NCBI GenBank assembly: GCA_964016885.1
Contig: OZ024743.1
Location: 160,766,001-160,830,000, forward strand
Direction of reading: 5' to 3'
Length of the DNA: 64,000 nucleotides
DNA from: Eledone cirrhosa
Taxonomy: Eukaryota
Shown: in pieces, positions 35,203 to 36,569 of the stretch
Layout: every line of letters begins with the position of its first letter
Numbering within the stretch: position 1 is the first letter of the stretch
Program-made: the position numbers and the translations under genes
The notes under the pieces: generated by a model
Database searches by the model: none
The model's input: only the letters and a program-made list of their open reading frames with translations
Told to the model about the DNA's origin: nothing

Positions 35203-35583
35203 ATAGAGTTAGAAGTAGAAACACCGGGGAAAAATGAGGAAAAATATATATCATAGAAATGACTTCTATAGGACTAAATCTGTTTCATTCGTATGAAATC
35301 ACCAGGATTGATTTCATACTAATGAAGCAGTATTAGACCTTTAGAAGTCATTCTATATAAAATAACGATGCTTATACATTACCAACGTATTGAGTTTCAC
35401 ATATATATATATAAAAGAAAATTTCGCTCTACAAGGCTAAATACAATAAATATAATCTGAGTTTTTCGAATATTAATAATAGCATTCGATACGTTTGCAA
35501 TTTTGCAATCAAGCCTCAATTTTATAGCCATGTCAGTAGAATGAACACTTCATTCTTGCTCTTGTGTTGGCATGCAAACAGAC

Positions 35584-35627
35584 CTGCAGACACTAATGTT
35601 TCTTGGTATCACCCGTCATCAGTACAG
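35584..35627 (-). ncRNA. Type I hammerhead with canonical core
   Basis: CUGUA-CUGAUGA-cgGGU gau ACCaa-GAAA-CAUUAGUG-UC-UGCAG. Confidence 0.75.
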
Positions 35628-35687
35628 CTCACTGTTCACCTGCCAAACTGTCAGAGCTAGTGAAAATATATGCTATTTTCAAAAATA

Positions 35688-35790
35688 CAGTCCTGATTTG
35701 CATATTAGCAGACTGACTGATCAGTCAGATCTGCATATTAGCAGATCCATTGATCAGCCAGATTTGCATATCAGCAGACTGGCCAGTCAG
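35688..35790. repeat. Three 33-bp tandem repeats each carrying ATTTGCAT or ATCTGCAT
   Basis: cagtc(c/a)gat(t/c)tgcatattagcaga... repeated three times. Confidence 0.8.
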
Positions 35791-36569
35791 TTTCCTGTAT
35801 ACGAGCGATTAATGGCCGCCTTTGTCAAATTCAAATAAAAAAGAAAATTTCGCTCTACATGGCTGAATACAATAAATGTAATCTGAGTTTTTCGAATATT
35901 AATAATAACATTCGATTCGTTTGCAATTTTGCAAACAAGCCTCAATTTTATAGCCATGTCAGTAGAATGAACACTTCATTCTTGCTCTTGTGTTGCAAAA
36001 TTGCAAACGAATCGAATGTTGTTATTAATATTCGAAAAACTCAAATTACATTTATATATATATATATATATATATATATATATATATATATATATATATA
36101 TATATATATATATAGAGAGAGAGAGAGAGAGAGAGAGAGAGAGAGAGAGAGAGAGAAGAAAGAGTGAGAGAAAATGCCACTCAAATGAGAATAGCCTCTT
36201 CTGTGCAGATAACAGCTTCAGCGTTTACGGGAAAATACGATTTATAGAAGAGAAAACTGCAGATTTTTCTAACAAATTTAATGTTAAGTTTGTGTAATGT
36301 CATTGTCAGACGACATTGGTTTCTTAGGAGAGAGAGAGAGGTGGAGCAAATTAAGGGGGATGTTGGTTTACTGAAGTGGGAGGGGAAAATGTACAGGGAA
36401 GACAAAGGAGGAAAAGTGTCTCGGTGAGCGAAGGAAGAAAGTCTATAAAATATGACGACGAGAGAGAGATTAAAAACCAGTAGAGAATATAATGGAGAGT
36501 AAAAAGGAAACCGAGTGTCATACAAAGTAGATGGGGAAGTGAAGTGAAGTAGGAAGAAAAAGCAACAGA

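Follow-up and report, generated by a model that had tools for sequence, protein, structure and literature searches.

Family B, a non-coding hammerhead repeat of Eledone cirrhosa with Penelope-type insertion ends, and its probable copying from linear and circular RNA

How does a short piece of DNA that encodes no protein come to be pasted into a tract of TA repeats, with one part of it doubled and another part inverted? The question is raised by a locus in a window of 64,000 nucleotides from Eledone cirrhosa (contig OZ024743.1 of assembly GCA_964016885.1, positions 160,766,001 to 160,830,000), the window being the whole stretch of DNA that was analysed, to which all plain coordinates below refer. 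A sequence-only reading of the window had taken the locus for a candidate retrozyme. Our main reading, to which we assign a probability of about 0.58, is that it is a decayed insertion of a 438-nt non-coding hammerhead repeat, here called family B, which the enzyme of a Penelope-like element (PLE) inserted into (TA)n, using cleaved linear and probably also circular RNA. At the level of class, it is highly probable that family B is a PLE-mobilised retrozyme.

The locus consists of two arms. Unit positions of family B are counted from the first base 3' of the GUC triplet (position 1), and by this numbering the main arm (35409-35995, minus strand, 1.36 units) runs from position 20 to 438, passes into position 1 and continues to 180, i.e., through one whole unit with its hammerhead to a “long” start site (unit 176-180) in the (TA)n. 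A redundancy of 157 bp is found at 35839-35995 (upstream copy) and 35413-35569 (downstream copy), both on the minus strand; by BLAST, the match is 161 bp at 95.65% identity, ungapped, with a period of 426. The upstream copy starts downstream of the cleavage site and therefore carries no second hammerhead. The second arm (35993-36055, plus strand) is an inverted copy of unit positions 81-143 by BLAST that meets the main arm head-to-head, overlapping it by 3 nt, and stops at a “short” start site in the (TA)n. The target is present on both flanks, at 35401-35413 on the left and as (TA)31 at 36053-36114 on the right. The direct repeat with its period, the short inverted end and the insertion in (TA)n had all been pointed out from the sequence alone, and all are borne out. 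The unit length of 426 is not: in the family, the majority unit measures 438 nt (range 404-444 and mode 438 over 22 full units), and the lower figure is due to a private 12-nt deletion near 35690.

Several parts of the unit can be recognized in the window copy. Internal 33-bp repeats (35695-35781, minus strand), which end just upstream of the private deletion, contain the octamer words ATGCAAAT at 35769-35762 and 35703-35696, with a variant at 35736-35729, and also give a long predicted RNA hairpin. A twin hairpin (35885-35940, minus strand) lies just upstream of the reverse transcriptase (RT) start sites and is kept in sister families; its second copy is at about 35466-35512, and part of it is also found in the inverted arm. 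The tail (35409-35446, minus strand) is the stretch between the short (unit 143-148) and long (unit ~165-182) 3' end sites. All differences between the two rounds of the window copy sit in the downstream round (35413-35569), and a single shared site separates the upstream round (35839-35995) from the family majority.

The sequence-only reading had named two ways in which its proposal might fail, namely, that the locus is single-copy, a mere local duplication, or that the family consensus lacks a stem II. Thousands of dispersed copies are found instead and stem II is kept in the family, so the retrozyme identity holds at the family level. A 22-mer from the ribozyme has 1,598 exact matches in the 3.0-Gb genome and a 25-mer from the 3' region has 3,802, with none for the respective controls (reversed, for the 22-mer); both counts are lower bounds. 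When 40 of 3,666 candidates were scored, all 40 were copies, spread over many contigs and, excluding the window locus itself, 87-95% identical. Copies diverge from the majority by a mean of 4.7%, GC content at the locus is 32% (1-kb bin) and the unit contains no sense-strand open reading frame (ORF) of 120 aa or more. The window locus is an ordinary decayed copy of this multi-copy family. A search of titles and abstract openings returned no published description of it; Repbase and Dfam, where it may be catalogued, lay outside that search, and family B is likely to be a new family of animal retrozymes.

The ribozyme in the window is a type I hammerhead at 35583-35628 on the minus strand. Stem I is formed by 35628-35623 with 35588-35583, the core by CUGAUGA (35622-35616), GAAA (35602-35599) and GUC (35591-35589), which places the predicted cleavage between 35589 and 35588, and stem II by 35614-35604; stem III is self-complementary. 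An extended stem I of about 20 bp with bulges (35567-35646, minus strand) closes the structure. The core words and the cleavage site stand as first described, but the label “canonical” has to be dropped, as the window copy has two changes in stem II and one in stem I. These are A to C at 35615, C to A at 35604, which trims stem II from 4 to 3 bp, and U to G at 35583 in stem I. All three are rare in the family and likely impair the ribozyme. Even the majority form departs from the canonical one, since its 4-bp stem II has an unpaired A on either side of its base, the extra A before GAAA being atypical. Li et al. (bioRxiv 10.64898/2026.07.22.740005) take at least two tandem units with complete hammerheads as the mark of an active donor. 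The window locus has one, with its upstream round beginning at unit 20, whereas two are spanned in 17 of 231 family B loci, and two or three intact motifs are present in 6 of the best 30 long matches. Having one hammerhead, and rare changes at three positions of stems I and II, the window copy is likely neither active nor a donor.

The family form combines a stem I of 6 bp, lengthened to about 20 bp, with the core and a self-complementary stem III whose predicted duplex energy is -8.8 kcal/mol. Stem I is paired in 6/6 positions in B, B2, C and A in spite of different letters, which amounts to covariation, with match counts that include overlapping loci; a motif pattern for a fifth family gave no matches. 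Stem II has 4 bp in 21 of 28 motifs from the 3'-anchored sample, which was not chosen on the ribozyme. No hammerhead family is reported by Rfam, either for the element (E values up to 10) or for the window (up to 1), so it is the motif, its pairing and the covariation that support the ribozyme call. Folded as a circle, the majority unit reaches -167.0 kcal/mol against -103.7 ± 5.8 for 40 shuffles, a stability to which the internal repeats contribute part. The lowest-energy fold of the ribozyme pairs the core with stem III (-36.0 kcal/mol, compared to -29.8 for the active fold, a gap of about 6), a pairing that is predicted to be an off state. The ribozyme region of the window copy folded alone has a z score of -1.9, and the twin hairpin one of -5.6.

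Family B is not alone in the window. Family A, at 48767-49556, forms long arrays with a period of 420-422 nt, and had been called unrelated to B and of matching unit size, perhaps through a shared constraint. Neither statement survives. A, B and a further family, C, align over the octamer, an AT-rich hairpin, the extended stem I, the hammerhead and the twin hairpin in the same order, and their tails are similar by eye. Unit sizes are 438 for B and 420-422 for A, and tandem motif matches of C are spaced 352-448 apart. As the families share ancestry and their sizes differ, a size constraint on A and B is unsupported. A DNA profile of A, B and C retrieved further non-coding families with the same layout among the sampled loci.

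Individual members of this group have their own peculiarities. Family A is a young relative of B whose cut site is GUA and whose stem II has U.U at its base; at about 20815-21030, a diverged and shorter A-like piece can be seen by eye, and a long hairpin adjoining family A at 48459-48646 is probably the end of a fold-back element. In family C, the cut site is GUU and stem III is a palindrome of 6 nt. Sister families with the octamer-hairpin-hammerhead layout are found at loci L281-L285, L293, L295 and L417-L446; L184, L247 and L291; and L052 and L296.

The clearest trace of the inserting enzyme is in the ends. These were mapped by BLAST against the majority unit in three samples, two anchored on the ribozyme (88 and 81 loci) and one on the 3' region (66 loci). 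The pooled set comprises 231 loci after removal of overlapping and duplicate loci, of which a few duplicates may persist; a fixed rule was used to reunite pieces interrupted by a SINE, and ends are accurate to a few nucleotides. Of the 3' ends, 124/167 and 113/143 fall inside unit positions 134-190, a 57-nt window of the 438, where they form two peaks about 35 nt apart, at unit ~142-149 (short) and ~165-182 (long). (TA)3 or more follows directly in 260 of 332 such ends, and the ends have short AT microhomology to the target. The sequence-only reading had asked whether endpoints are circularly permuted. On the 3' side they are not: the ends there cluster at these two sites.

Arms are commonly paired head-to-head (56/88, 35/66 and 48/81 loci, or 139 of 235 locus entries over the three samples), and only 1 of 231 loci has them tail-to-tail. 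The head-to-head junctions follow a rule: 86 of 137 could be classified, of which 83 join a long to a short end, three join two short ends and none joins two long ends; the other 51 have an end outside both classes. The window locus conforms to the long-plus-short rule. By eye, the 3' ends of family C occur at homologous words, and the twin hairpin lies just upstream of the 3' end sites in A, B and C; it may serve as an enzyme-binding signal. A partial tandem, an inverted 5'-truncated copy and a tail at one end together make up the Penelope “tail” pattern, and this is the end geometry of family B.

If the enzyme is that of a PLE, what was the template? Part of the answer comes from the 5' stops of 180 arms whose 5' end is free of the probe. 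Between -14 and +20 around the GUC site there are 39 stops against 14.5 expected (2.7-fold, p 7e-8), and 11 against 3.2 expected within -1 to +6, an excess which suggests that part of the templates had been cleaved by the ribozyme. The pile-up is broad, with eight ends lying 2-14 nt beyond the site, and it could also come from RT stalling in the ribozyme helices rather than from cleavage. TGCA microhomology as its cause is unsupported, as five other TGCA words have no excess of 5' stops.

Other arms are read straight through the GUC site (82 of 180). The junction is as clean there as elsewhere, with indels in 6 of 272 windows (median 3.7%), so that template jumps between cleaved ends can be dismissed; a clean read-through fits an uncleaved linear tandem and a circle equally well. 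Arms reach 1,085 nt (2.5 units) with scattered 5' ends. Arrays of three or more B units are absent both from the 231 sampled loci and from the best 30 long matches (40 of 4,041 candidates scored). Variants common to two rounds of the same arm occupy 0.53% of sites versus 0.13% between loci, about four times as many, and subfamily alleles are common to the arms of one locus in 88-89% of cases versus 56%, although sharing within a locus could come from subfamilies active at the same time or from gene conversion. The rounds of at least one arm (L013) belong to different subfamilies, which does not fit a circle, since a circle of a single monomer cannot yield mixed rounds. The copy of greater than unit length in the window, first read as the mark of reverse transcription around a circle, is not diagnostic, as partial tandems are described as general in PLE insertions (PMC8557442). 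A circular step in the retrozyme cycle is mildly favoured on balance.

The main contender is a PLE-mobilised family copied from linear RNA only, that is, from uncleaved partial tandems and some cleaved molecules, the tandems arising by self-insertion into AT-rich sequence or by template switching. Such copying is known in vitro: purified PLE protein, in the experiments described in PMC11167929, initiated at internal positions of uncleaved linear RNA, so that cleavage by the ribozyme was unnecessary. Fixed 3' ends, the mixed rounds of L013 and an active fold 6 kcal/mol above the inactive one are all in keeping with it. However, copying from linear RNA would only make copies shorter, whereas there are arms of up to 2.5 units that lack a fixed 5' boundary, and arrays are missing from the 231 sampled loci and the best 30 long matches. 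Jumps between cleaved ends would be at odds with the lack of an indel excess at the junction. A candidate transcription start site, at unit 372-374 (10 ends against 3.1 expected, p 0.086 after 68 windows), was rejected, as most of the junctions there use a word in common with the partner arm and junction microhomology explains them. Copying from linear RNA only is possible, but we doubt it, and the mixed linear and circular template is kept as the main reading.

The search for a partner enzyme bears on a second alternative, in which B is the broken-off pLTR end of an autonomous PLE, with no replication as an independent unit. The hammerhead, the tail and the inverted ends are all pLTR features, and at two loci (L277:1556 and L278:1980) a B arm is joined directly head-to-head to a 5'-truncated PLE arm. 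The two PLEs belong to different families, however, and that at L277 has no B pLTR; the junctions are possibly mixed-template insertions or chance neighbours. A young and abundant PLE family has a 784-aa ORF, with a GIY-YIG domain in the window copy, and neither this family nor the one abutting B at L277 has a meaningful DNA match to B, two families being compared out of 29,638 first-look PLE candidates in the genome. No autonomous partner sharing ends with B emerged among the sampled loci by way of the A/B/C profile, the Hydra-like pieces or the family C loci. An ORF with RT and GIY-YIG between pLTRs is absent from B, whose arms circle the whole 438-nt unit up to 2.5 turns without coding sequence. 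A broken pLTR is largely refuted and very improbable.

Other PLE remains in the window include the 5'-truncated copy of the 784-aa-frame family at 19536-20701 (minus strand), beside which a canonical hammerhead was not found. Two C-terminal PLE fragments at 41098-41760 and 33052-33414 (both minus strand) have no Pfam match and are presumably Hydra-like. The first of them is followed by a 140-bp partial tandem at 40164-40434.

A third possibility is that B is SINE-like and moved by a LINE, of the R4/Dong-like or RTE type common here. The genome has both LINEs and a very abundant SINE, and some LINEs target microsatellites. The geometry tells against it, since both outer ends of B insertions are 3' ends that overlap in sequence and obey the long-plus-short rule (83/86), and since the insertions of the resident SINE are of the ordinary kind, with one arm and duplicated targets. 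No 3' tail common to B and the R4/Dong-like LINE ends in the window could be seen by eye. Mobilization by a LINE is therefore regarded as very improbable, a shade more so than the broken pLTR. Finally, it might be supposed that the locus is an assembly artefact or was duplicated locally, and that its likeness to a hammerhead is due to chance. The silence of Rfam and the z score of -1.9 might be cited in favour, but this view is refuted by the dispersed copies (1,598 exact ribozyme 22-mer matches, control 0) and the stems that covary across families.

The SINE is tRNA-derived, and its 3' end has 149,239 exact matches in the genome. At least 46 of 373 B sites carry it at unit position 109, in the loop region of the twin hairpin, as independent insertions (e.g., L047:2100-2275, L079 and L089); some loci have it twice, and family C has it as well (L284, L436 and L441). 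Because the SINE also enters ATTAT words elsewhere, position 109 is a hot spot and not a dedicated target, and the idea of a SINE or LINE dedicated to B was dismissed, with the B-type site in 927 matches against 149,239 SINE ends overall (the probes differ slightly). In the window, 2079-9544 (plus strand) holds four tandem 5'-truncated LINE copies with RT and a restriction-like endonuclease, each ending in (AAT)n, which we take to be R4/Dong-like, and 9903-15239 (minus strand) a near-complete LINE whose ORF1 has 666 aa and whose endonuclease-RT frame is split in two. At L094:1183-1216, the junction of two B arms contains a few repeat units of telomere type.

The current thinking is that the cycle would begin with transcription of copies that carry two hammerheads. 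The octamer is a candidate promoter: five or more families keep it, its place in B and its sisters is some 90-110 nt 5' of the core, and in B it falls inside a predicted RNA hairpin; 5' end statistics did not reveal a transcription start site. By analogy with known retrozymes, paired hammerheads would then act as dimers, held by their palindromic stem III, to cleave the RNA and free 438-nt monomers, some of which would be ligated into circles. On its own, a monomer is predicted to keep its ribozyme off by pairing the core with stem III. A dimeric PLE enzyme with RT and GIY-YIG domains may bind the twin hairpin and nick both strands of the (TA)n. Two cDNAs would be primed, one from unit 143-148 and the other from ~165-182, as the end pattern indicates. 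The head-to-head geometry suggests that the two 5'-truncated cDNAs would then be joined by short microhomology.

Tentatively, the genomic copies can be read as a fossil record of this whole retrozyme-PLE cycle, with a dimeric PLE enzyme, a twin hairpin, two RT starts, linear and circular templates and a ribozyme off-switch. If true, this would directly support the use of circular RNAs as templates for transposition in animals, and would pin down a minimal cis-signal for mobilization by a PLE. In the literature cited here, both the mobilizing enzyme of animal retrozymes and the use of the circle as template are presented as proposals and not as proven. Family B gives the PLE link support that can be counted, in the one-tail rule (83/86) and the (TA)n target, and puts names to parts that can be tested, namely, the twin hairpin, the two start sites and the predicted off-switch.

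Among known systems, the repeat newt satellite 2 carries a hammerhead whose stem III is palindromic, and an internal promoter of snRNA type has been reported for it (cited in PMC2220036 and PMC7229834). Family B has the first two features, and its octamer recalls the promoter. The B octamers sit in a predicted RNA hairpin, and the 5' ends disclosed no start site. The non-autonomous Chlamys PLEs (MRC1), as described in PMC8557442, are non-coding, depend on PLEs and form pLTRs and head-to-tail copies. B is likewise non-coding; MRC1 resembles its autonomous partners at the 3' end, whereas B has no such partner among the families compared. B has a hammerhead, and the MRC1 clade is said in the same source to lack canonical ones.

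Insertions of endonuclease-bearing (EN+) PLEs offer another parallel. According to PMC8557442, PLE insertions generally have a partial tandem, an inverted 5'-truncated copy and often a 30-40 bp tail at one end, and B has all of these, together with the (TA)n target that it has in common with EN+ PLEs. In vitro work ascribes the tail to the use of two internal RT start sites and to extension of both strands of the target (PMC11167929), and EN+ PLEs, like B, have a hammerhead upstream of two internal RT starts. A weak palindromic stem III that works as a dimer and an unpaired base 5' of stem II, reported for metazoan and PLE hammerheads (PMC4209133, PMC7229834), are also features of B. B differs from EN+ PLEs in having no RT/GIY-YIG ORF, and its 3' ends show AT microhomology to the target, whereas the anole PLE began at a non-homologous site in vitro (PMC11167929).

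The metazoan non-LTR retrozymes, for which PLEs have been proposed as mobilizers (PMC7229834; bioRxiv 10.64898/2026.07.22.740005), are also among the closest systems. As characterized in PMC7229834, they are short, AT-rich, non-coding units with one type I hammerhead and a weak palindromic stem III, and B is the same. A mismatch at the base of stem II (U.U in axolotl HHR_Amex2) and a highly paired predicted circle are found in both. B differs in occurring mostly as dispersed two-armed insertions of 0.3-1.9 units rather than as arrays, in a core that is predicted to be self-blocked, a pairing that PMC7229834 calls uncommon in metazoan retrozymes, and in the lack of a matching pLTR in the two PLE families compared. 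Family B thus has the testable characters of a metazoan non-LTR retrozyme and, in addition, carries the insertion scars of a PLE.
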